This document shows, piece after piece, positions 3,926 through 59,669 of a stretch of DNA of 64,000 nt. The stretch is from an uncultured Thermodesulfobacteriota bacterium (GTDB lineage Bacteria > Desulfobacterota > CAZCTP01), in the NCBI GenBank assembly GCA_964501575.1, contig CAZCTP010000005.1, positions 2,446 through 66,445 on the forward strand. Reading direction: 5' to 3'. A model generated the notes under the pieces. It was given only the letters and a program-made list of their open reading frames with translations, was not told the DNA's origin and made no database searches. Position 1 is the stretch's first letter; every line of letters begins with the position of its first letter. The position numbers and the translations under genes were made by a program.

Positions 3926-4377
3926 ATAGTAAAATATTTACCAAGATTGTATGTGGTGTTTATGTGGTTACAGTAAAAAAGGATGATATTATAAATGGGA
4001 TTACCATTGCCTGGGCAAATAGGGTATCACATTCTCCTTCACTTATAATGATATCCGTGGGTAAGAAACATTTTAGTCATGAGTTAATTAAGGAAGGTAA
4101 GGTATTTGCATTAAATATTCTAAGTGATGAACAGAAGGATATAGCAAAAATTTTTGGGTTAAAATCGGGCAGAGGTATTAATAAATTTAAGGATATAGAA
4201 TATACTACAAAATCTACAGGATGTCCTATATTAAAGAATTGCATAGGATATTTAGATTGTAAGGTTGTTTCATCATTAGAAGCTGGGGACCATACCCTAT
4301 TTATAGGTGAAGTTATAGAAGGGGAGCTTTATAATGATAAGGCTACATTGATATATAATCCAGATGATTATTTTTGA
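3922..4377 (+). CDS. Flavin reductase-like domain protein (NAD(P)H:flavin oxidoreductase family)
   Basis: 151 aa with similarity to the PF01613-type flavin reductase fold. ATGA overlap with lspA. Confidence 0.55.
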   Translation: MNSKIFTKIVCGVYVVTVKKDDIINGITIAWANRVSHSPSLIMISVGKKHFSHELIKEGKVFALNILSDEQKDIAKIFGLKSGRGINKFKDIEYTTKSTGCPILKNCIGYLDCKVVSSLEAGDHTLFIGEVIEGELYNDKATLIYNPDDYF

Positions 4378-4383
4378 ATTTAT

Positions 4384-4467
4384 TGCCGAAGGGGGGACTC
4401 GAACCCCCACAAGGTTGCCCTTACTAGATCCTGAATCTAGTGCGTCTCCCAATTCCGCCACTTCGGC
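4384..4467 (-). tRNA. tRNA-Leu (anticodon CAG), class II with a long variable arm; no encoded CCA
   Basis: The reverse complement folds as a cloverleaf: acceptor stem GCCGAAG/CTTCGGC, anticodon stem CTAGA/TCTAG with loop TTCAGGA, T arm GGGGG-TTCGAGT-CCCCC, discriminator A. It is GC-rich against the AT-rich genome. Confidence 0.85.
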
Positions 4468-4510: not shown

Positions 4511-5446
4511 ATGAAGCTATTTAGAAAGATAGAGGATATTAAAGAGAAATTTAGAAACCCGGTACTTACAATAGGTAATTTTGATGGTGTGCATATAGGT
4601 CATAGAAGGATCTTTGATATAGTTAAGGAGAAAGCTTCGAAAATAAATGGAGATTCAGTGGTATTTACTTTCGAACCTCATCCTGTAAAGCTTCTTATTC
4701 CGAATAAAGGTCCGTTTCTTATAACTACCTTTGAGGAGAAGATAAGATTGATTGAAGAATCTGATATAGATATTATAGTATGTCCTAATTTTGATATGAA
4801 TTTCGCAAATCAGACTCCAAGAGAATTTATTGAAAATGTTTTTGTTAATATAATAGGGATTAAAGAAGTTGTAATAGGTTATGATTATCTATTTGGTAAA
4901 AATAGAAAAGGGAATATTAATACTATCAAGGATTTTGGTAAAGAATATGGATTTAATGTTGATGTAATCAAACCGATAAAAGTAGACAATACTATTGTTA
5001 GCTGCACAAAGATAAGGGAATATATAAAAAAAGGGATGGTAAAAGAGGCATCCCTATTATTAGGAAGAGATTATTATATTGATGGTTATGTAATCAGTGG
5101 AAGAGAAAGAGGAAGGAAGTTGGGATTTCCCACAGCCAATTTAAATCCTTATAATGAACTAATACCGAAGTCTGGAGTATATGTTGCTAAAATAGTATAT
5201 TCAAACAGGATGTTTGAAGGGGTGGTAAATATAGGTAATAATCCAACATTTAGCGATACTTCCTTTTCTATAGAGGCACATATGTTTAACTTCAATAAGG
5301 ATATATATGGAGAGAAGATAAGAATAATATTTATTGATAGATTAAGAGAAGAGGTAGCATTCAAGAATCCTGATGATTTAAAAAGACAGATAGAGATTGA
5401 TATAATAACCGCAAAGAAGATATTAAACCTGAGTTACTCAAAATAA
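4511..5446 (+). CDS. ribF: Bifunctional riboflavin kinase / FAD synthetase
   Basis: N-terminal FAD synthetase motif (GNFDGVHIGHRRI) and a C-terminal riboflavin kinase domain (GFPTANL...). 311 aa. Confidence 0.9.
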   Translation: MKLFRKIEDIKEKFRNPVLTIGNFDGVHIGHRRIFDIVKEKASKINGDSVVFTFEPHPVKLLIPNKGPFLITTFEEKIRLIEESDIDIIVCPNFDMNFANQTPREFIENVFVNIIGIKEVVIGYDYLFGKNRKGNINTIKDFGKEYGFNVDVIKPIKVDNTIVSCTKIREYIKKGMVKEASLLLGRDYYIDGYVISGRERGRKLGFPTANLNPYNELIPKSGVYVAKIVYSNRMFEGVVNIGNNPTFSDTSFSIEAHMFNFNKDIYGEKIRIIFIDRLREEVAFKNPDDLKRQIEIDIITAKKILNLSYSK

Positions 5447-6449: not shown

Positions 6450-7259
6450 ATGGGTATATTATCAAAAAAAATAGCAATTATTACAGGAGGGGGAACTGGC
6501 ATAGGGAAGGCTATCTCCCTTGCCTATGCTAAAGAAGGATGTGATCTCGTAATAGCTCAAAGAACCTATGAAGCAGCTAAGAGGATGTCTGATCAGATAA
6601 AGAGTATGGGAAGGAGGGCCCTGGCATTAAAAACCGATATATCCAAGAGTGAGGATATCCGTAACCTTGTAAAAACCACTTTAGAAGAATTTGGAAGGAT
6701 AGATATATTGGTTAATAATGCAGCAGTATTCTTTCCGGTTCCCTTCTTAGAAATTTCAGAAGAGGAATTGGATATGGTGCTGTCTATAAACCTTAAAGGA
6801 ACCTTCTTACTCAGTCAGGCAGTGGCTAAAGAGATGGTCAAGAGGAGGAAAGGTAAAATTATAAATGTAGGTGCAGGACAGTCTTTACTTGGCATCCCCT
6901 TCTTCTCCCACTATGCCTCCTCAAAGGGAGGAATAAATGCTTTAACCAGGAGTATGGCAGCAGAGCTATCTCCCTATGGTATATATGTAAATGTAGTATC
7001 ACCTGGATATATCCTCACTGATAAGGTAATAGAGCTTCTTCCCCCTGAATTTGCTCAGGCGTTGACAGAGGTTATAACATCTTCAACCCCTTTAGGGAGG
7101 CTTGCCACCCCAGAAGAATGTGCTGGTGCAGCACTATATTTAGCATCTGATGAAAGTAATGGAGTGACAGGACATATTATTCCGGTAGATGGGGGCTGGA
7201 GTTCTGCTGTAAATTTGAATGAGATGATAAACAAATATAAGGAAAGGAGAGATAAATGA
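6450..7259 (+). CDS. Short-chain dehydrogenase/reductase (SDR)
   Basis: TGGGTGIG Rossmann motif, NNAA, and a YASSK catalytic Tyr-x3-Lys. 269 aa. Confidence 0.85.
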   Translation: MGILSKKIAIITGGGTGIGKAISLAYAKEGCDLVIAQRTYEAAKRMSDQIKSMGRRALALKTDISKSEDIRNLVKTTLEEFGRIDILVNNAAVFFPVPFLEISEEELDMVLSINLKGTFLLSQAVAKEMVKRRKGKIINVGAGQSLLGIPFFSHYASSKGGINALTRSMAAELSPYGIYVNVVSPGYILTDKVIELLPPEFAQALTEVITSSTPLGRLATPEECAGAALYLASDESNGVTGHIIPVDGGWSSAVNLNEMINKYKERRDK

Positions 7260-16590: not shown

Positions 16591-16715
16591 TTAGACAGAA
16601 CAGGTATTAAAACTATTTCATATGAATTAAAGATTCACTCTCTTAGAAAATAAGTGATACTGCCTACCCATATTAAAAATTTGCTTTTATTCTTTAAATA
16701 TATTATTCTTTAAAT

Positions 16716-16895
16716 ATGGAACATAAAGAAATAATAGAAAAATTAAAAACTATATTTAGTTTATCAAAAGAGCTCGTAGAAGCAAGGATACCAGCTTTAG
16801 AGGGTGATGTAGAAATAATACTTTCAATAGTAGGAGATAAACTCAGGTATATTGTTCCTGAAGAATTTTATGAGCATATTGTAAAATATGAATGA
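16716..16895 (+). CDS. Hypothetical small protein (59 aa), not in the ORF track (below its length cutoff)
   Basis: Open ATG-to-TGA frame (MEHKEIIEKLKTIFSLSKELVEARIPALEGDVEIILSIVGDKLRYIVPEEFYEHIVKYE) in a 560-bp intergenic gap. Codon composition resembles the genome, but no clear SD. Confidence 0.25.
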   Translation: MEHKEIIEKLKTIFSLSKELVEARIPALEGDVEIILSIVGDKLRYIVPEEFYEHIVKYE

Positions 16896-17062
16896 AAAGA
16901 AGAATAACTGATAGAAGAAAAATATTAAAAACTGTTCCAAAGCTTAGAAAAATTAAGAGAAGGAAAAAGGATAACAAATAAATGTCATCCAAGATGTATC
17001 CTATCGGCTGCAAAGGTATACCTTGTATTTGAGCATTTCTATCTCTCAGTTTGTAAATTATT

Positions 17063-17091
17063 TTGATATTTCTATTATAATTTATTATAAT
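17063..17091 (+). promoter_or_regulatory. Candidate sigma70-type promoter (TTGATA-N17-TATAAT) for por
   Basis: The hexamers were read directly; a second overlapping option is TTGTAA(17051)-N19-TATAAT(17076). It lies about 58 nt upstream of the por ATG, which has SD AGAGGAGG. Confidence 0.45.
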
Positions 17092-17149
17092 AAAAATTTA
17101 TATTTTTATAAAAACCTGCAATTGGTTAATGTAAAAAGAGGAGGAATAT

Positions 17150-20100
17150 ATGAAAAGAAGAATGATAACTGTTGATGGTTGTACAGCATGTGCACATGTA
17201 GTACATGCTACAAATGAGATAATAACAATTTATCCAATAACTCCTTCTTCACCTATTGCAGAGATCTGCGATTCAAAATCTGCAGCAGGTGAAGTAAATA
17301 TATGGGGGACAGTGCCAAAGGTTAATGAGATGCAATCTGAAGCAGGAGCTGCTGGAGCAGTTCATGGTTCTCTGACAACTGGGGCTCTTTGCACAACAAT
17401 TACAGCTTCTCAGGGACTTTTATTAATGATACCCAATATGTATAAAATTGCAGGAGAACTCACATCCACAGTATTCCACATAACTTCTCGTTCTCTTGCA
17501 TGTCAGGCACTTTCTATATTTGGAGACCATTCAGATGTAATGGCTGCAAGGTCAACCGGCTTTGCAATGCTTTGTTCTAAAGATGTTCAGGAAGCTATGG
17601 ATTTTGCACTCATATCCCAGGCTTCAACGCTCGAATCCAGAATACCATTTATGCATTTTTTTGATGGTTTCAGAACATCTCATGAGATACAGAAGATAGA
17701 AGAACTTACCTTTGATGATATGCGGGCTATTATAGATGATGAGTTTGTTATAGCCCACCGTATGAGGGGACTTACATCCGATCATCCAAATATAAGGGGA
17801 ACCTCTCAAAATCCTGATGTATACTTTCAGGGACGTGAAACGGTAAATAAATATTATGATGCAACTCCTCAAGTTGTTCAGAAGGTTATGGATAAATTTG
17901 CAGATTTAGTTGGAAGGCAGTACAGAATATTTGATTATTTTGGAGACCCTGAAGCTGAAAGAGTCATTGTAATTATGGGATCAGCAGGAGATACTGTGTT
18001 AAGTACTATTGAGTCATTAAATGCAAGGGGTGAAAAGCTTGGAATGATTCAAGTGAGGCTTTATAGGCCATTTGATACAAATGGTTTTGCGGAGGTTCTT
18101 CCTTCAACTGTCAAAGCAATTGCTGTGCTTGACCGCACTAAAGAACCTGGTGCGATAGGTGAGCCTTTATACCTTGATGTCAGATCAGCTGTTGGTGAAG
18201 CAATAGAAAGAGGAATAGCGGAGTTTAAAACTTATCCTAAAATTGTTGGCGGCCGTTACGGTCTTGGTTCAAAAGATTTTACCCCTGCTATGGTAAAAGC
18301 TGTATTTGACAATTTATCAAAGGATCAGCCGAAAAACCATTTCACTATTGGTATAGAAGATGATGTGACTCATACCAGCATTGAATATGATAAGTCATTT
18401 AGTTTAGATGAAAGAGGTGTTTATCGTGCCATGTTTTATGGATTGGGTTCTGATGGGACTGTGGGAGCAAATAAAAATACTATTAAGATTATCGGAACCG
18501 AGACAGATAATTATGCCCAGGGGTATTTTGTATATGACTCAAAGAAATCTGGAGCTATAACTATATCTCATCTTCGTTTCGGTAAAGAGAAAATACGCAA
18601 TCCTTATCTTTTGTCAAAGGCTAACTTTATTGCATGTCATAATCCTTCATTTCTTGAAAAATACGATATGTTATCCAATGCAGAAGAAGGAGCAATTTTC
18701 CTGCTTACAACATCATATAAAAAAGATAAGGTTTGGGATACCCTACCTATAGAAGTTCAAGAACAGCTTATAAACAAAAAGATGAAGTTTTATATAATTG
18801 ATGCTATATCCCTTGCTGAAGAGATTGGGCTTGGTGCAAGAATTAATATTATTATGCAGACAGCTTTCTTTATAATATCCGGAATTCTACCAAAGGAGGA
18901 GGCTATAAAATCTATAAAAACTGAAATCGAAAAGACCTATATAAAAAAGGGGAATGAAGTTGTTGAGATGAACTATGCTGCAGTAGATAGGGCCCTACAG
19001 AATATAGAAGAAGTTCCTGTACCTAATAAGGTTACAAGTAAGATAAGAATGAAACCTCCTATCCCTGAAGATTCTCCTGATTTTGTTAAGAATGTGACGG
19101 CTAAGATTATTGCTGGGAAGGGAGATTCTCTTCCTGTTTCAGCTATACCTGATGATGGCACCTGGCCAACAGGAACCACTCAGTATGAAAAGAGAAATAT
19201 AGGGGTTTATATCCCAGTATGGGAACCTGAGATTTGTATACAATGTGGTCAATGTGCCTTTGTATGTCCTCATGCAGCTATAAGAATTAAGGCATACGAA
19301 CCAGCCTTATTAAAGAACGCCCCTTCAGATTTCAAATCTGTTGATGCAATTGGTAAGGATTTAAAAGGGCTTAAATTTACTGTTCAAGTAGCGCCAGAAG
19401 ACTGTACAGGTTGTGGTTCATGTTCCTATATGTGTCCAGCGCGTAAGAAGGATGCTGAAGGTAATAAGATTGCTGATTTTAAAGCAATAAATATGAAATT
19501 GCAGGAACCACTTAGACATAAAGAGGCAAAAAATTATAAATTTTTTCTGAATTTACCGGAAACTGATCCATCAAGATACAAAATTTCAACCATTAAAGGA
19601 AGTCAGTTAGCAAGACCTCTATTTGAGTATAGTGGTGCCTGTGCAGGGTGTGGAGAAACGCCATATATAAAGTTACTTACACAGTTGTTTGGTGATAGAT
19701 TAATTATTGGTAATGCAACAGGTTGTTCATCTATATATGGTGGAAATCTTCCAACTACACCTTATGCAAAGAGAGCCGATGGAAGAGGTCCAGCATGGTC
19801 AAATTCACTCTTCGAGGACGCAGCGGAATTTGGATATGGTATGAGACAAACATTAGACAAATTTTATTTACAGGCAATAGAGCTAATAGATAAGTTTGCT
19901 TCGGACCCCTCATATTCGCATGTAAAGGAACTTTTCAATTCGATTAAGAATGCTGATCAATCTAATCAAGAGGGTATTGAACGACAAAGAGCACGTGTTG
20001 AAGAACTTAAAAGAATACTTTCTAAAGATAATTCTACTGTAGTAAAATGGTTTCTTTCCCTTGCTGACTATTTGGTCAAGAAGTCTGTATGGGCTATTGG

Positions 20101-20734
20101 TGGTGATGGTTGGGGATATGATATTGGCTATGGAGGCGTAGACCATGTTCTTGCATCAGGTGAGAATGTAAATCTTCTGATTCTTGATACGGAGGTCTAT
20201 TCAAACACAGGCGGACAGATGTCAAAGTCAACTCCATTAGCAGCTGTAGCTCAGTTTGCTGCAGGGGGTAAGAGAACTCCTAAAAAGAATATAGGACTTA
20301 TTATGACTACATATGGTAATGTTTATGTTGCCCAGGTAGCTTTTGGTGCCAATCCTGCCCAGACAATAAAGGCCTTCTTAGAGGCTGACGCATACAATGG
20401 ACCTTCATTGATTATTGCCTACTCTAATTGTATATCCCATGGTATAGATATGAGCAAAGGGATTGAGGAACAGAGGAAGGCTGTTAGCTGTGGACATTGG
20501 CCTCTCTACCGCTATAATCCAGAACTTGAGCGCCAGGGTAAAAGTCCTCTTATTATTGATAGTAAGGAACCTACTATCTCTTTTGAAGAATATGCATATA
20601 ATGAAAATCGTTATAGAGCACTTAGGTCTCTTAATCCTGAATTAGCAGCAGAACTTATTAAACAGGCAAATGCCGAAGTAAGAAGAAGATGGCAATATCT
20701 TAAACATTTATCAAAATGGATTCCAGAAGTATAG
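17150..20734 (+). CDS. por: Pyruvate:ferredoxin (flavodoxin) oxidoreductase, single-polypeptide type
   Basis: 1194 aa with two ferredoxin-type clusters (CIQCGQCAFVCP, CTGCGSCSYMCP) and a TPP-binding region (GGDGWGYDIGYGG). Nearly all of the 1194 residues align to the PFOR/NifJ family. Confidence 0.9.
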   Translation: MKRRMITVDGCTACAHVVHATNEIITIYPITPSSPIAEICDSKSAAGEVNIWGTVPKVNEMQSEAGAAGAVHGSLTTGALCTTITASQGLLLMIPNMYKIAGELTSTVFHITSRSLACQALSIFGDHSDVMAARSTGFAMLCSKDVQEAMDFALISQASTLESRIPFMHFFDGFRTSHEIQKIEELTFDDMRAIIDDEFVIAHRMRGLTSDHPNIRGTSQNPDVYFQGRETVNKYYDATPQVVQKVMDKFADLVGRQYRIFDYFGDPEAERVIVIMGSAGDTVLSTIESLNARGEKLGMIQVRLYRPFDTNGFAEVLPSTVKAIAVLDRTKEPGAIGEPLYLDVRSAVGEAIERGIAEFKTYPKIVGGRYGLGSKDFTPAMVKAVFDNLSKDQPKNHFTIGIEDDVTHTSIEYDKSFSLDERGVYRAMFYGLGSDGTVGANKNTIKIIGTETDNYAQGYFVYDSKKSGAITISHLRFGKEKIRNPYLLSKANFIACHNPSFLEKYDMLSNAEEGAIFLLTTSYKKDKVWDTLPIEVQEQLINKKMKFYIIDAISLAEEIGLGARINIIMQTAFFIISGILPKEEAIKSIKTEIEKTYIKKGNEVVEMNYAAVDRALQNIEEVPVPNKVTSKIRMKPPIPEDSPDFVKNVTAKIIAGKGDSLPVSAIPDDGTWPTGTTQYEKRNIGVYIPVWEPEICIQCGQCAFVCPHAAIRIKAYEPALLKNAPSDFKSVDAIGKDLKGLKFTVQVAPEDCTGCGSCSYMCPARKKDAEGNKIADFKAINMKLQEPLRHKEAKNYKFFLNLPETDPSRYKISTIKGSQLARPLFEYSGACAGCGETPYIKLLTQLFGDRLIIGNATGCSSIYGGNLPTTPYAKRADGRGPAWSNSLFEDAAEFGYGMRQTLDKFYLQAIELIDKFASDPSYSHVKELFNSIKNADQSNQEGIERQRARVEELKRILSKDNSTVVKWFLSLADYLVKKSVWAIGGDGWGYDIGYGGVDHVLASGENVNLLILDTEVYSNTGGQMSKSTPLAAVAQFAAGGKRTPKKNIGLIMTTYGNVYVAQVAFGANPAQTIKAFLEADAYNGPSLIIAYSNCISHGIDMSKGIEEQRKAVSCGHWPLYRYNPELERQGKSPLIIDSKEPTISFEEYAYNENRYRALRSLNPELAAELIKQANAEVRRRWQYLKHLSKWIPEV

Positions 20735-20793
20735 AATAGAGAATGAAATTAAAATTTTTATAACTTAAAACTAATAAAAATTAGAGGGATAAT

Positions 20794-21422
20794 ATGGAAA
20801 TTATTCAAGCAATTAAAGAAAGACGTTCAATTAATTTTTTGATCCGAGTAAAAAAATTTCAAATAGTGAGTTAAAAGAATTGATAGACCTTGCTAACCTC
20901 TCACCATCTTCCTTCAATTTACAGCCATGGAAGGTTATAGTAGTAAGAAACCCTGAAAAGAAGAGAGTTTTAAGAGAGTGCGCTTTTCATCAACCTAAGA
21001 TTGAAGAAGCCCCTGTAGTATTAATTATAATTGCTGATCTAAAAGCTGTTGAGGAAAATATGGAAAAAGCGCTTAATAGTTGGCAAGAGCTCGGATATAT
21101 AAAATCTGATGAAAGAGATACCTATATCGGTATGATAAATAATCTTTATGGAGAGACGGAAAGTCTTAAAAGGAAGTTATTTGCAGTAAAGAATGCTTCT
21201 TTATTTGCCATGAACCTCATGATTGCAGCAAAGGTATTAGATTTTGATACACATCCAATGGACGGATTTGAGGAAGATAAGATAAAAAAAGAATTTAATA
21301 TACCCGAGGATGAAATAATCCCGATGCTTATAGCTGTTGGTAATCTAAAGCCAGAAATAATACTTCTTAAAAGAGCATTTAGGAGAAGCTTTGAAGAATT
21401 TGTAATATTTGAAAATGTATAG
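20794..21422 (+). pseudogene. Nitroreductase-family gene interrupted by a 1-nt frameshift in a T6 homopolymer (20835-20840); possibly a sequencing error
   Basis: The ATG at 20794 (SD AGAGGGA) encodes MEIIQAIKERRSIN..., the canonical nitroreductase N-terminus, and then stops after 26 codons. The rest of the family (FDPSKKISNSELKELIDLANLSPSSFNLQPWK...) continues in the other frame. Confidence 0.6.
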
Positions 21423-21703
21423 CGAGGCCGGTCCTGTCCCAATGAGTAGGATTGACTAGCTAATATAAAAGTAGAGAATATCTTGTTTTCGAATATTCCC
21501 TGCGGCTTGTCGTAGAGAGCTTCAAATATACTAAAAAAGTTTCTGAGGACTTCCTCAAAAATTTTATAGCAGTATATAAACTATTATATAAGAAACTTCT
21601 TCCTTTAAATTTCTTTAAATTTTTTTATTTCCAAAAACTTTTGATATTACAGTAATTATCTTCAATATAAACGAATTCTTAGAAAACTATAGTATATTTT
21701 AAA

Positions 21704-21733
21704 TTGACATAATTATAATTTTAGATATATAAT
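21704..21733 (+). promoter_or_regulatory. Candidate sigma70-type promoter (TTGACA-N18-TATAAT) for the 21786-22553 two-gene unit
   Basis: The hexamers were read directly. Confidence 0.4.
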
Positions 21734-21735
21734 TA

Positions 21736-21753
21736 AATAATAATAATAATAAT
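21736..21753. repeat. (AAT)6 microsatellite in the 5' leader
   Basis: Six perfect AAT units were read directly. Confidence 0.8.
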
Positions 21754-21785
21754 ATAAAAATTATTATAAAGGAGGTGATAAAATA

Positions 21786-22277
21786 ATGAATAAGAATCTA
21801 CTAAAGGTAACCCGCTTAATACCATCCTCAGTGGTATTGATAAGTGTTGGAACTTCTGAAAAATCCGATGTTATGACAGCTACTGCTACGTTTGTTTCTG
21901 AAGATCTGCCTTTAATTACTGTAAGTGTTGCTAAACATCTTATCTCCAATGAAATTATAGAAAAATCTGGAGAATTTGTCCTCAATATTCCCTCTATTAA
22001 TCAGGTTGAACTTACAAGAGAGATAGGCGCTACTCATGGTAAAGAGGTGAATAAATTTAAAAGATTTAATATTGAGACTGAAAGGGCAAAGAGGATTAAT
22101 TCTCCTTTAGTAAAAGGATGCTTTGCTAATATTGAATGTAAGGTTATCACATCTATCCCGGTTAGCAACTATACTCTTTATCTGGCTGAGGCTATAGAAT
22201 ATAGAATCGATGACAAACTGTTTCCTATTGTGTGGCATAAGGATAAATACTTTGCTTTAAAAGAAGAAATAAATTAA
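21786..22277 (+). CDS. Flavin reductase-like domain protein
   Basis: 163 aa with similarity to the PF01613-type flavin reductase fold; paralog of 3922-4377. SD AAGGAGGTGA. Confidence 0.6.
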   Translation: MNKNLLKVTRLIPSSVVLISVGTSEKSDVMTATATFVSEDLPLITVSVAKHLISNEIIEKSGEFVLNIPSINQVELTREIGATHGKEVNKFKRFNIETERAKRINSPLVKGCFANIECKVITSIPVSNYTLYLAEAIEYRIDDKLFPIVWHKDKYFALKEEIN

Positions 22278-22295: not shown

Positions 22296-22553
22296 ATGTC
22301 TGATAAATTAAAAGAAGCTTATGTATGCAAAACATGTGGTAAGATAGGAAAGATTGAACATTTATGTAATCCTGCTACTGAATTCAAACTTTTAAATGTT
22401 GAACCTTCTAATTGCCAATTCTGTGGAGAAAATATTAAAACTCCTTATCATATGTGTAAAGGTAAACTTCAGGAGGCAGAATATGTCTGTGGACAATGTG
22501 GAAGGATAGCACTCAATGAAGAGTGCCTCTGTGTACCAGAAAAAATAAATTAA
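22296..22553 (+). CDS. Small cysteine-rich protein (10 Cys, three CxxC), predicted metal-binding, internally duplicated
   Basis: Two copies of EAYVCxxCGxI(x6)LC.P (residues 7-26 and 60-81). SD AAGGAGGT. A rho-independent terminator follows. Confidence 0.6.
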   Translation: MSDKLKEAYVCKTCGKIGKIEHLCNPATEFKLLNVEPSNCQFCGENIKTPYHMCKGKLQEAEYVCGQCGRIALNEECLCVPEKIN

Positions 22554-22798: not shown

Positions 22799-24316
22799 AT
22801 GCAGGTAAATGTGGCTCAAATTAAAGAATTAATAACTGCCTATATACCCAATTTAATTGGAGCTATAGCTATTTTAATTTTGGGATGGTTAATTTCTTTA
22901 CTTGTTACTGCTATTGTCCGTGCGGGACTCAGGCATACAACCCTGGATAATAGACTGGCACGTTGGATTATGGGGGAAGAGGCTGCTAAGAAGATAGAGG
23001 TTGAAGAAGGAATTGCTAAAGGAATATTTTATTTACTTATGCTCTTTGTACTGGTTGCATTCTTCCAGGCTCTTGGACTTACCCTTATCACTGAACCTAT
23101 AAATAGATTTTTAACCAAACTCTTTCAATTTATCCCTCAATTATTAGGAGCTCTGATATTATTAATTATAGCGTGGTTCGTAGCAGGAACTCTAAGACTT
23201 ATCATTTCAAAGCTATTAAGCACAAGTAAGTTTGATGAGATTGTAGGAGAAAAGGTTGGAAGGGAAGAGAAGAAGCCTATCCCGTTGACAAAAACAATTG
23301 CTGATACTGTATACTGGCTGGTATTTCTGCTTTTCTTACCTGCGATATTAAGTACTTTGGCTCTGGAAGGTCTTCTTGAACCTATCAGAGAAATGGTCAA
23401 CAGAATCCTGACCTTTCTACCAAATATATTTGCAGCTGGTTTAATCCTTGGAGCAGGGTGGTTTGTTGCTCGTATTATTCAAAGAATTGTCACCAATCTA
23501 TTAACCGCTATTGGAACCGATAGATTGGGTGAGCAGGTAGGAATAGGGACAGTTTTGGGTACTGAAAGACTTTCTGGACTCCTTGGCTTCATAGTCTATA
23601 TTCTAATCCTTATTCCAGTACTTATTGCTTCTCTGAATGCATTAAAGCTTGAAGCGGTGACCAAACCAGCAAGCAATATGCTTAATATGATTCTTCAAGC
23701 CATTCCATCTATATTTGCTGCTGCTCTATTATTGACTATATCCTATATAATAGGACGTCTGGTGGCAAATTTAATCGCTACCCTACTTGCAAATGCTGGT
23801 TTTAATAAGATTATGGTCTGGCTGGGAATAGGAGAGGAGAGTTCAGAGGGAACAAAAACCCCTTCAAATATATTAGGCTATCTGGTTCTGGTTATAATTA
23901 TGCTTCTCGCTATAATTGAAGTTTTTCAGATTCTGGGATTTGGTGCTGCAGCTGATTTAATTAGTCAATTTATAATATTTATAAGTCATGTCATTTTAGG
24001 ATTGATTATATTCGGTATTGGATTATACTTAGCTAATCTTGCCTCCAAGACTATTCAGGCGAGCAGTACAACCCAGGCTAATCTGTTAGCCCTTGCAGCA
24101 CGTATCACCATTCTGATTTTTGCAGGAGCAATGGGTTTAAGACAGATGGGACTGGCAAATGAGATTATTAACTTAGCCTTTGGTTTACTGCTTGGAGCAA
24201 TAGCAATCGCAATAGCGATCGCTTTTGGATTAGGAGGTCAGAAGATAGCTGCTCAAGAATTGGATGAGTGGATTAAATCATTAAGATCAAAATCCAAGAA
24301 ATCACAAAGAAATTAA
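22799..24316 (+). CDS. Polytopic membrane protein built from tandem conserved-TM-helix (MscS N-terminal-type) repeats; no MscS channel domain
   Basis: Four to five repeats of about 95 aa, each with IP.L.GALILLIIAWFVAG.L..II..LL......G..VG. The ATG at 22799 lies 7 nt after GGGGG (the tabulated GTG at 22793 is less likely). 505 aa. Confidence 0.65.
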   Translation: MQVNVAQIKELITAYIPNLIGAIAILILGWLISLLVTAIVRAGLRHTTLDNRLARWIMGEEAAKKIEVEEGIAKGIFYLLMLFVLVAFFQALGLTLITEPINRFLTKLFQFIPQLLGALILLIIAWFVAGTLRLIISKLLSTSKFDEIVGEKVGREEKKPIPLTKTIADTVYWLVFLLFLPAILSTLALEGLLEPIREMVNRILTFLPNIFAAGLILGAGWFVARIIQRIVTNLLTAIGTDRLGEQVGIGTVLGTERLSGLLGFIVYILILIPVLIASLNALKLEAVTKPASNMLNMILQAIPSIFAAALLLTISYIIGRLVANLIATLLANAGFNKIMVWLGIGEESSEGTKTPSNILGYLVLVIIMLLAIIEVFQILGFGAAADLISQFIIFISHVILGLIIFGIGLYLANLASKTIQASSTTQANLLALAARITILIFAGAMGLRQMGLANEIINLAFGLLLGAIAIAIAIAFGLGGQKIAAQELDEWIKSLRSKSKKSQRN

Positions 24317-45264: not shown

Positions 45265-45816
45265 TTGGATAGGATGCAATTAATATATGAGGAAGCAGAT
45301 GATATAAAGGGTAATTTTATTCAGGAGTCTTTCTTAAAGTCCTTAAATAAATGGGATAAAATGGAAGGGGAGTTTTATATTAAAAAACCTGGAATGATGC
45401 GATGGAATTATAAAAAGCCATATATTCAGGAGATAATAATTTATGGTAGGAAGATATGGATCTATTATCCTTTAGAGAAGGAAGTAACTGTGAATAAATT
45501 ATCAGATGCATTGATAGATAATATTTCAATAACCTTTCTATTAGGTGCTGGAAATATAAAGAAAGATTTCAATATTAAAATGGCTAAGGTCCCTTATTCA
45601 TTTAATCTCTTTCCAAAGAATCAAATGGGAGATGTAGATAGAATATTCATAAATATTGATAGTAAGAGTTATTTAATAAAACTAATGGAGATCCATGACA
45701 TATATGGGAATATAAATAGGCTAAAGTTTAATAATCTTTCAATAAATAATAATATTTCTTTATCTTTGTTTATTTTTAAACCACCAAAAGATGTGGAGAT
45801 AATAGGTGAAGAATAA
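45265..45816 (+). CDS. lolA: Outer-membrane lipoprotein carrier protein LolA (N-terminus uncertain)
   Basis: The LolA-family pattern runs through the ORF. An in-frame hydrophobic segment lies upstream of the tabulated TTG start; see findings. Confidence 0.6.
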   Translation: MDRMQLIYEEADDIKGNFIQESFLKSLNKWDKMEGEFYIKKPGMMRWNYKKPYIQEIIIYGRKIWIYYPLEKEVTVNKLSDALIDNISITFLLGAGNIKKDFNIKMAKVPYSFNLFPKNQMGDVDRIFINIDSKSYLIKLMEIHDIYGNINRLKFNNLSINNNISLSLFIFKPPKDVEIIGEE

Positions 45817-46048
45817 AATTAAGAGTAATCTTATCTTAAATACATTGGGAGAATATTGTCCTATTCCTATAATTAAGACTCAGGAGTATATAAATAAAAT
45901 AAAAATGGGCGAAGTACTTGAGATATTATCGGATGATAAAGGAATTATAAAAGATATGATAGACTGGTGTAAGGGTAGTGGCAATGAGTTTATAGGGTTT
46001 GATAAGGATAATGATAAGTATAGACTATATATAAAAAGATTGGTATAG
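45806..46048 (+). CDS. TusA-like sulfurtransferase
   Basis: 80 aa with the N-terminal LNTLGEYCPIPIIKT motif (CPxP active-site Cys). GTG start overlapping lolA. Confidence 0.65.
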   Translation: MKNKIKSNLILNTLGEYCPIPIIKTQEYINKIKMGEVLEILSDDKGIIKDMIDWCKGSGNEFIGFDKDNDKYRLYIKRLV

Positions 46049-46058
46049 GGAGAACATC

Positions 46059-46823
46059 TTGGAAGATAGAAGACTCGGTGATGAATGGATAGACTGGAGT
46101 GGTAACTTAAATGATTATGAGTGGGATATAAAGGAAAGGAAACGTCTTTTCTTTGGTTTCTCTATAGTTGTATTTTCTCTTTTAATAACAGGGTCTCTAT
46201 TTTTAGGGTATCTAATAAAACCCCGTCTGAATCAAATAACTCCTCTCTTATCAAAGATAATATTTTTATTCTTCTTTTTTATCCTATCCCTTATATTTTT
46301 ATGGTTTTTCCTTTTAGCAATATCTACAATCACGGGTAAAAACTATCTTCCATTTCCAAGGTTAAACTATGCCATTTTGGATTTCTTCTTAATAAGAGCT
46401 ATATGGCTTGGAGAGAAACTTGGAATATCAAAGGATAGGATGTGTAATTCCTTTATAAAGGTAAATAATGCTCTTGTAAAAAGCATAAAGGGCATATACT
46501 ATAGGGATAAACTTTTAATTTTATTACCTCGATGTTTAGATAAGAGAGTGATAGATGTGATAAAAGATATATGTAAAAGATATAAATGTGAAATAATGAT
46601 AGTAGGTGGGGGGAATCTGGCAAGGAAGATAATCCTTGAAAAGAAGCCTACTGCTATAATAGGGGTTGCATGTGAGAGAGATCTTGTTAGTGGAATAAAG
46701 GATGTAGCAAAGAATATTCCAGTGATAGGAATCGCAAATAAGAGGCCTAAAGGTCCATGTAAGGATACCTATATAGATATCAATCAGTTAGAGGAGGCTA
46801 TTAAATTCTTTAGCTATGGGTAG
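46059..46823 (+). CDS. Membrane protein with Cys-rich cytoplasmic domain (DUF116-like)
   Basis: Two TM helices followed by a domain carrying conserved Cys (LPRCL, C..YKC, VAC). TTG start 6 nt after GGGAG. Confidence 0.45.
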   Translation: MEDRRLGDEWIDWSGNLNDYEWDIKERKRLFFGFSIVVFSLLITGSLFLGYLIKPRLNQITPLLSKIIFLFFFFILSLIFLWFFLLAISTITGKNYLPFPRLNYAILDFFLIRAIWLGEKLGISKDRMCNSFIKVNNALVKSIKGIYYRDKLLILLPRCLDKRVIDVIKDICKRYKCEIMIVGGGNLARKIILEKKPTAIIGVACERDLVSGIKDVAKNIPVIGIANKRPKGPCKDTYIDINQLEEAIKFFSYG

Positions 46824-59109: not shown

Positions 59110-59391
59110 TTATAAAATAATTTTATCTATAAGAGCTATTAACTCCTTTGATCTATTTTCCACACAATCAAAAAGTGATTTTTTTTCTTCTTTAATAACA
59201 AAATATTCATCAGCGATATTTAAAGCCGCTAATATTACAATTTTTTGTAACTCTACCATTCTTGTTATTTTCTGGAGCTCCCGGATCTTTTTATCCACAT
59301 AGTCAGCTATTCTCTTCATATAATCTTCATCTCTGTCACCTTTTATTGTAAACCTCTGATCAAGAATGTTTATTTCTATACCTTTATCCAA
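59110..59391 (-). CDS. zapA: Cell division protein ZapA
   Basis: 93 aa: INILDQRFTIKGD followed by a coiled coil. Confidence 0.75.
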   Translation of the reverse strand: MDKGIEINILDQRFTIKGDRDEDYMKRIADYVDKKIRELQKITRMVELQKIVILAALNIADEYFVIKEEKKSLFDCVENRSKELIALIDKIIL

Positions 59392-59402
59392 CCATTTTCC
59401 TC

Positions 59403-59630
59403 TTATTGAAAATTAATATCTTCCAGTCGGGCTAATAAGCTTTCCACCTTTTTATATATTTCTTCTCTCTCATTCTTTAACATGTCTATTTTTTCATTGA
59501 GCACTCTAATATTTTCATCTTTTTCTCTTAAACCATTAATCAATTCATCCCTTTCTTTTTTTAAACTATTATACCTTTCCATTAATTTAATTATTTTTTC
59601 TTCTAAGGTCTTAAATTCTTTTAATTCCAT
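59403..59630 (-). CDS. ZapB-like coiled-coil protein (75 aa, starting at the ATG at 59630)
   Basis: Heptad-rich MELKEFKTLEEKIIKLMERYNSLKKERDEL.... The tabulated TTG start at 59669 coincides with a -35 hexamer. Confidence 0.5.
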   Translation of the reverse strand: MELKEFKTLEEKIIKLMERYNSLKKERDELINGLREKDENIRVLNEKIDMLKNEREEIYKKVESLLARLEDINFQ

Positions 59631-59639
59631 AATATTTTT

Positions 59640-59669
59640 ATTATAGTGTACTATTAACATATTAGTCAA
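59640..59669 (-). promoter_or_regulatory. Sigma70-type promoter TTGACT-N18-TATAAT driving a near-leaderless ZapB-like/zapA transcript
   Basis: The -35 is the revcomp of 59664-59669 and the -10 is the revcomp of 59640-59645. The ATG lies 9 nt after the -10. Confidence 0.5.

Follow-up and report, generated by a model that had tools for sequence, protein, structure and literature searches.

A probable frameshift pseudogene of the nitroreductase family, split at a run of T residues in an uncultured Thermodesulfobacteriota bacterium

Background

In a 64,000-nt stretch of DNA from an uncultured Thermodesulfobacteriota bacterium (contig CAZCTP010000005.1 of assembly GCA_964501575.1; referred to here as the window), an open reading frame of 180 codons that starts at a TTG is preceded by a short reading frame with an ATG start, and the two together read like a single nitroreductase gene. 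The locus raises the question of whether such a gene is really broken in this organism and, if so, whether its product is lost. The initial annotation, made from the sequence alone, described a nitroreductase gene split by a one-base frameshift inside a run of six T residues (T6), and left three options open for the origin of the split: an error of homopolymer sequencing, a recent pseudogenisation or a slippage-prone tract. We have compared the locus with assemblies of the same species, with orthologs in other genomes and with the wider protein family in order to weigh these options.

Structure of the locus

The features of the locus that are needed for the argument are as follows, with the basis of each in brackets.

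20783..20789, + strand: Shine-Dalgarno-like AGAGGGA, 4 nt 5' of the original start codon ATG 20794 (sequence reading)
20794..21422, + strand: the whole probable nitroreductase pseudogene (PF00881 family), 209 aa if the T-run is taken as T7 (restored translation, Pfam, end-to-end ortholog alignment)
20794..20874, + strand: 5' fragment, an ORF of 26 codons whose residues 1-15 match the ortholog consensus (ORF list and sequence)
20835..20840, + strand: T6 homopolymer, putative site of a one-base deletion (sequence, orthologs with T7, five assemblies of the same species)
20850..20856, + strand: A7 run (sequence and homopolymer scan)
20880..21422, + strand: 3' fragment, an ORF of 180 aa from TTG, corresponding to residues 30-209 (ORF list, gapless ortholog alignment)

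Direct reading of the sequence confirms the ATG at 20794, the Shine-Dalgarno sequence AGAGGGA before it and the stop after 26 codons that the initial annotation reported: the ORF 20794..20874 begins with ATG 20794-20796, ends with TAA 20872-20874 and encodes MEIIQAIKERRSINFLIRVKKFQIVS. Its codons 1-15 specify the authentic nitroreductase N-terminus MEIIQAIKERRSINF, and codons 16-26 are out of frame. The T-run consists of exactly six T residues, with an A on one side and a G on the other. The frame of the 180-aa ORF is +2 (equivalently, -1) relative to that of ATG 20794 and is open from 20835, directly after a TAA at 20832-20834. When one T is inserted into the T6 run, the two frames are joined into a protein of 209 aa containing ...RRSINFFDPSKKISNSELKELIDLANLSPSSFNLQPWK..., which bears out the earlier prediction that an extra T would connect the ATG frame to the ORF from TTG 20880. 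The A7 run further downstream encodes a conserved K-K in the authentic frame, and the 3' fragment contains no further stops or indels relative to orthologs. No single uninterrupted ORF covers the nitroreductase domain, the frame being broken after codon 15, and because of this break and the premature TAA at 20872-20874 we have filed the locus as a PF00881 pseudogene and not as a working member of the family.

Family identity and relatives

The restored translation of 209 aa scores 92.2 bits against the Pfam profile PF00881 (Nitroreductase; curated cut-off, 23.5 bits) and spans positions 1-166 of the 167 in the profile, a level of sequence similarity that is far beyond chance; the 180-aa ORF alone scores 66.8 bits and reaches only positions 24-166. 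The restored frame, the Pfam match and the orthologs thus agree with the initial annotation that this is a nitroreductase gene split by one base within T6. Like other members of the family, the restored protein spans the whole domain, matches its relatives in length and keeps the RRSxNxF N-terminal segment, the motifs SPSSFNLQPW and THPMDGF, and a C-terminal RR. It differs from them in that the gene is frameshifted after codon 15, which leaves an annotated product without residues 1-29.

Among about 5.8 billion protein clusters, a word-indexed search identified 916 relatives. The sole match at 100% identity was the 180-aa product itself (P0001, together with P0121, the same sequence with an M start), and the next-best matches to the restored protein were about 66-73% identical to it and almost all 207-209 aa in length; for the orthologs that align with it from end to end, identity is ~60-72%. 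These nearest relatives are uncharacterised proteins, and those that carry names belong mostly to metagenome-assembled genomes (MAGs) of Nitrospirae/Nitrospirota and Thermodesulfovibrionales; Dissulfurispira thermophila and a small number of Candidatus Acetothermia MAGs are also represented. The taxonomy of these best hits, taken by itself, would probably place the bacterium in the Nitrospirota/Thermodesulfovibrionia. With the locus's own 180-aa product set aside, all 119 of the other homologues among the matches listed are 207-232 aa long. In an alignment of 32 sequences, with which the restored protein aligns from end to end, the other 31 homologues all start at the upstream Met, the N-F-F codons coincide with the T-run, and residues M1, R10, R11, S12, N14 and F16 are invariant, the restored protein included. 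The first 18 residues of the restored N-terminus are identical to those of one ortholog (P0013). An ortholog that truly starts at the position of the downstream TTG, which the initial annotation had named as the finding that would make the upstream segment a spurious match, was not encountered among the listed full-length orthologs, which start at the upstream Met.

The nearest solved structures are nitroreductase-family flavoenzymes, namely 3ge6, 3bem (YdfN) and 1nox (the NADH oxidase of Thermus), whose alignments start at query residues 3-7; query residues 1-64 alone match 51 solved family members, and E. coli NfsB (1ds7) aligns with residue 1 of the query opposite its own residue 1, a correspondence of start positions and not a residue-by-residue comparison. 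A search of the window for a second nitroreductase, i.e., a paralogue of the split gene, found none.

The ancestral state of the T-run

The comparison with orthologous loci that the initial annotation proposed gave a uniform result. In one tblastn scan of species-representative genomes, from which 80 loci were retained, every locus gave one unbroken match that runs from residue 1 of the query to about residue 207 and is intact in this sense. The N-F-F codons read AAT TTT TTT, i.e., an in-frame T7, in 24 of the 80 orthologs and are synonymous variants of this sequence in the rest, and the window has AAT TTT TT|G AT at the same place. Since the orthologs are intact and 24 of them carry T7, the lesion is most simply explained as a T7 run that lost one T. 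Runs of this kind are known to be disfavored elsewhere: UUUUUUU and AAAAAAA are depleted in the genes of E. coli (Sharma et al., PMC4066793), and transcriptional slippage or a high rate of indel mutation have been suggested as possible reasons for the depletion (PMC4066793).

The orthology of these loci rests on sequence and length only, since there is no shared synteny to add to it: a pyruvate:ferredoxin oxidoreductase (PFOR) gene adjoins the nitroreductase gene in none of the 80 loci, and a single weak match to a flavin reductase was found among them. Unlike the genes at these loci, the gene in the window has PFOR and flavin reductase genes as its neighbors, so that the nitroreductase sits in a lineage-specific context (loci L005-L084 compared with window positions 17150-22277).

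Is the lost base a sequencing or assembly error?

Indel errors of sequencing fall most typically in homopolymers, and the most obvious alternative to a broken gene is that the organism truly has T7 and an intact gene, one T having been under-called. To this we would assign only a small chance, for reasons that come from the assemblies of other datasets. Gene calls of exactly the 180-aa product exist at JGI, at NCBI and in Logan, among them those of three JGI metagenomes and two SRA runs (Logan). The five assemblies of the locus from these datasets compare with the window as follows.

JGI 3300023444 (L002): identical to the window; T6
JGI 3300038380 (L001): two SNPs, at 18816 and 18849; T6
JGI 3300038381 (L003): both SNPs of L001, with 9 nt deleted in frame from PFOR and 30 nt deleted from a mechanosensitive-channel gene; T6
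Logan SRR9849936 (L004): no difference over 3.9 kb; T6
Logan SRR9849951 (L085): one SNP, at 18849; T6

All five of these assemblies have T6, on at least four distinct flanking haplotypes, and at the level of assembly consensus no polymorphism of the tract was seen between them. The JGI samples and SRA runs may overlap in their libraries, which puts the number of truly independent datasets at three to five, and the datasets may also share a platform. The evidence for T6 comes throughout from consensus assemblies and not from reads, so that a T missed systematically at just this position is formally conceivable.

The window itself provides a second measure of sequence quality. ORFs of at least 150 aa number 48 and together take up 87% of its bases; within them lie 91 other homopolymers of at least 6 nt, 21 of which are 7-9 nt long, with no break of frame at any of them. 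A scan of the window for homopolymers at frame junctions returned gene boundaries only, apart from the nitroreductase locus, and the window yielded no further split gene. Two groups of ORFs were considered as possible split genes, namely LolA/TusA/DUF116 at 45265-46823 and ZapA/ZapB at 59110-59669, and both were rejected in view of the finding that each member covers its whole Pfam profile. The recurrence of the same T6 in five assemblies, together with the 91 intact homopolymers, makes a sequencing error unlikely and a random or platform-wide homopolymer error very unlikely, and the first of the three options in the initial annotation loses most of its force on these grounds.

Nor has an intact allele of this species come to light. 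The search of about 5.8 billion protein clusters found no 209-aa allele of the species and, beyond the 180-aa product itself, nothing above 73% identity. Two scans of the metagenome_contigs collection, one that allowed T5-T8 with a variable gap and one with a fixed-length IUPAC pattern that fits both T6 and T7, gave no match; the known T6 allele was absent from it as well, so the collection evidently does not include the organism and its silence is not evidence against a T7 allele.

A frameshift pseudogene as the best reading

Of the three options first considered, recent pseudogenisation is the best supported, and we regard it as probable that the locus is a genuine, fixed and probably recent frameshift pseudogene of an FMN-dependent nitroreductase-family gene. 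The sequence of events would have begun with a deletion of one T from a T7 run in the N-F-F codons, most likely through replication slippage on the homopolymer, and the deletion would then have become fixed in the sampled population of this uncultured, low-GC bacterium. Translation from the original ATG now departs from the authentic frame after codon 15 and stops at codon 27, and residues 30-209 survive only as an ORF from a TTG that lacks a convincing ribosome-binding site, a remnant without the family-invariant N-terminal segment that comprises R10, R11, S12, N14 and F16. In our reading of the sequence, no convincing Shine-Dalgarno sequence precedes TTG 20880. In the related enzyme NfsB, residues that match the lost segment take part in FMN contacts: in the Klebsiella protein the ribityl chain of the cofactor is contacted by Arg10, Ser12 and Ser39, and its pyrimidine ring by Lys14 (PMC10805014). 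Since the FMN-contact segment is lost and the TTG has no convincing ribosome-binding site, loss of function is likely, and the gene is most likely non-functional.

The presence of a single lesion suggests that the inactivation was probably recent. We found neither several lesions nor an excess of changes at conserved positions, either of which would point to an old or decaying pseudogene. Of 79 columns with a conservation of at least 95%, the restored protein departs from the consensus at 4 (P83L, G150D, G188E and P193K), the second-highest number among 74 sequences; intact orthologs of similar divergence depart at 4-5 of the 79, in what is a comparison of low power. The undamaged state of the 180 codons would fit a recent pseudogene and would fit a gene still under selection equally well.

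In all these respects the locus resembles the homopolymer-slippage pseudogenes of bacteria, in which a mononucleotide run has lost one base and the rest of the gene is intact, as are the relatives examined. There is no material difference from that class, and the locus is unusual only in that the lesion is common to several micro-diverse haplotypes. The finding is one of ordinary gene inactivation. In biological terms it would mean that the population has dispensed with one accessory flavoenzyme, no more, and it has little importance beyond annotation: the 180-aa "nitroreductase" in JGI, NCBI and Logan data should be labelled as a frameshifted pseudogene. The case also illustrates that a real frameshift can be told from a homopolymer artefact without reads, by comparing SNP-distinct independent assemblies, examining the same codons in orthologs and counting the intact homopolymers on the contig.

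Recoding, slippage and phase variation

We see a slim chance that the full-length enzyme is still made, through -1 ribosomal frameshifting, transcriptional slippage or a phase-variable switch between T6 and T7. Read in the frame of ATG 20794, the sequence contains two slippery heptamers, T_TTT_TTG (20835-20841, i.e., T6 plus G20841) and A_AAA_AAA (20850-20856), both of which fit the pattern X_XXY_YYZ in the zero frame and lie 5' of the premature stop. A slip in the P site on the T-run would, as read from the sequence, restore exactly N-F-F-D, and the 3' ORF is otherwise undamaged. The translational "correction" of indels is, moreover, a recognised phenomenon (PMC5009743).

Several observations speak against these mechanisms. 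The length of the tract is the same in all five assemblies, contrary to what phase variation would lead one to expect, and six T residues are short for efficient transcriptional slippage or for phase variation. As for recoding, the frameshift occurs in none of the 80 orthologous loci, and the signals that would be expected to stimulate it are lacking: the 90 nt at 20841-20930 fold to -5.7 kcal/mol as compared with a mean of -9.5 for shuffled sequences (z = +1.48, i.e., more weakly than the shuffled ones), and there is no GGAGG- or other Shine-Dalgarno-like stimulator in the 20 nt upstream. Where a stimulator is missing, heptamers in E. coli exceed the frameshifting background of ~0.055% only 2- to 10-fold, and U_UUG is a poor A-site motif even when it is combined with a pseudoknot (PMC4066793).

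The likeness to programmed -1 frameshifting of the dnaX and IS3/IS911 types consists of a zero-frame X_XXY_YYZ heptamer at a frame junction. The present locus differs from those systems in having no downstream structure, no upstream Shine-Dalgarno-like stimulator, no conservation in the 80 orthologs and, in UUG, a poor shifter in the A site. A programmed frameshift event is not supported, and the A_AAA_AAA heptamer is incidental. The zero-frame T_TTT_TTG could yield a small amount of full-length product, and adventitious leakiness at a level well below 1% is plausible if one extrapolates from E. coli. It is an even slimmer prospect that slips of the ribosome, or of RNA polymerase, on T_TTT_TTG yield a useful amount of the full-length protein, as a lineage-specific "correction" of the indel; if true, an enzyme once expressed normally would now be made at a very low level. 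The constant tract length, the lack of a stimulatory RNA structure and the absence of the frameshift from all 80 orthologs leave the suggestion of a functional slippage-prone tract unsupported.

The slimmest prospect of all is that the ORF from TTG 20880 is itself functional, either as an N-terminally shortened nitroreductase or as half of an enzyme in two pieces, for which ribosomes would terminate at TAA 20872 and then reinitiate, for although gene callers have annotated it as a nitroreductase, its score against PF00881 is still 66.8 bits and only 5 nt separate the TAA from the TTG (which makes reinitiation physically possible), it lacks profile positions 1-23 with the invariant R10, R11, S12, N14 and F16, the NfsB residues that match the lost segment contact FMN (PMC10805014), no convincing Shine-Dalgarno sequence lies 5' of the TTG, and its length is unlike that of any of the 119 other listed homologues (207-232 aa), with an upstream Met as the start in all 31 of those aligned.

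Neighboring genes and other features of the window

Two predicted signals lie between the probable pseudogene and the flavin reductase gene downstream of it.

21540..21561, no strand assigned: terminator-like hairpin 3' of the pseudogene that has a T-rich tail on each strand (consensus scan only)
21704-21733, + strand: perfect sigma-70 consensus promoter TTGACA-18-TATAAT, 53 nt 5' of the flavin reductase start at 21786 (predicted)

With a predicted promoter of its own and a terminator-like hairpin upstream, the flavin reductase gene would not depend on the nitroreductase gene for its expression. The 363-nt non-coding gap at 21423-21785, which holds the promoter, has no Rfam match. Just 3' of the flavin reductase gene there is a Cys-rich ORF of 85 aa (22296-22553, + strand), which gene calling recovered in the assemblies examined and which has no Pfam match. 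A C-x2-C-G ... C pattern occurs in it three times (YVCKTCGKIGKIEHLC, CQFCGENIKTPYHMC and YVCGQCGRIALNEECLC), and, to judge from this sequence, it may be a small metal-binding protein.

In the strain in JGI 3300038381, the 9-nt in-frame PFOR deletion, at 18061-18069, gives a product of 1191 aa as compared with 1194, and the 30-nt deletion in the mechanosensitive-channel gene lies at about 23405-23433; a tandem repeat was sought as the cause of the latter and none was found. Further haplotypes are distinguished by the SNPs at 18816 and 18849. On the 5' side of the 1194-aa PFOR gene, a stretch of 559 nt (16591-17149) contains no long ORF and is a possible regulatory region; two very short genes, of 59 and 29 aa, were called within the matching stretch of Logan contig L085.

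The window's only Rfam match at the gathering threshold is a tRNA gene (4384-4467, - strand; 57.4 bits), which lies between an ORF that ends at 4377 and another that starts at 4511. The homopolymer scan also flagged an A8 run at 6464-6471 (+ strand), 14 nt inside the start of an ORF of 269 aa (6450..7259), because on its 5' side a second frame stays open over 23 codons; this is probably just the start of a gene.
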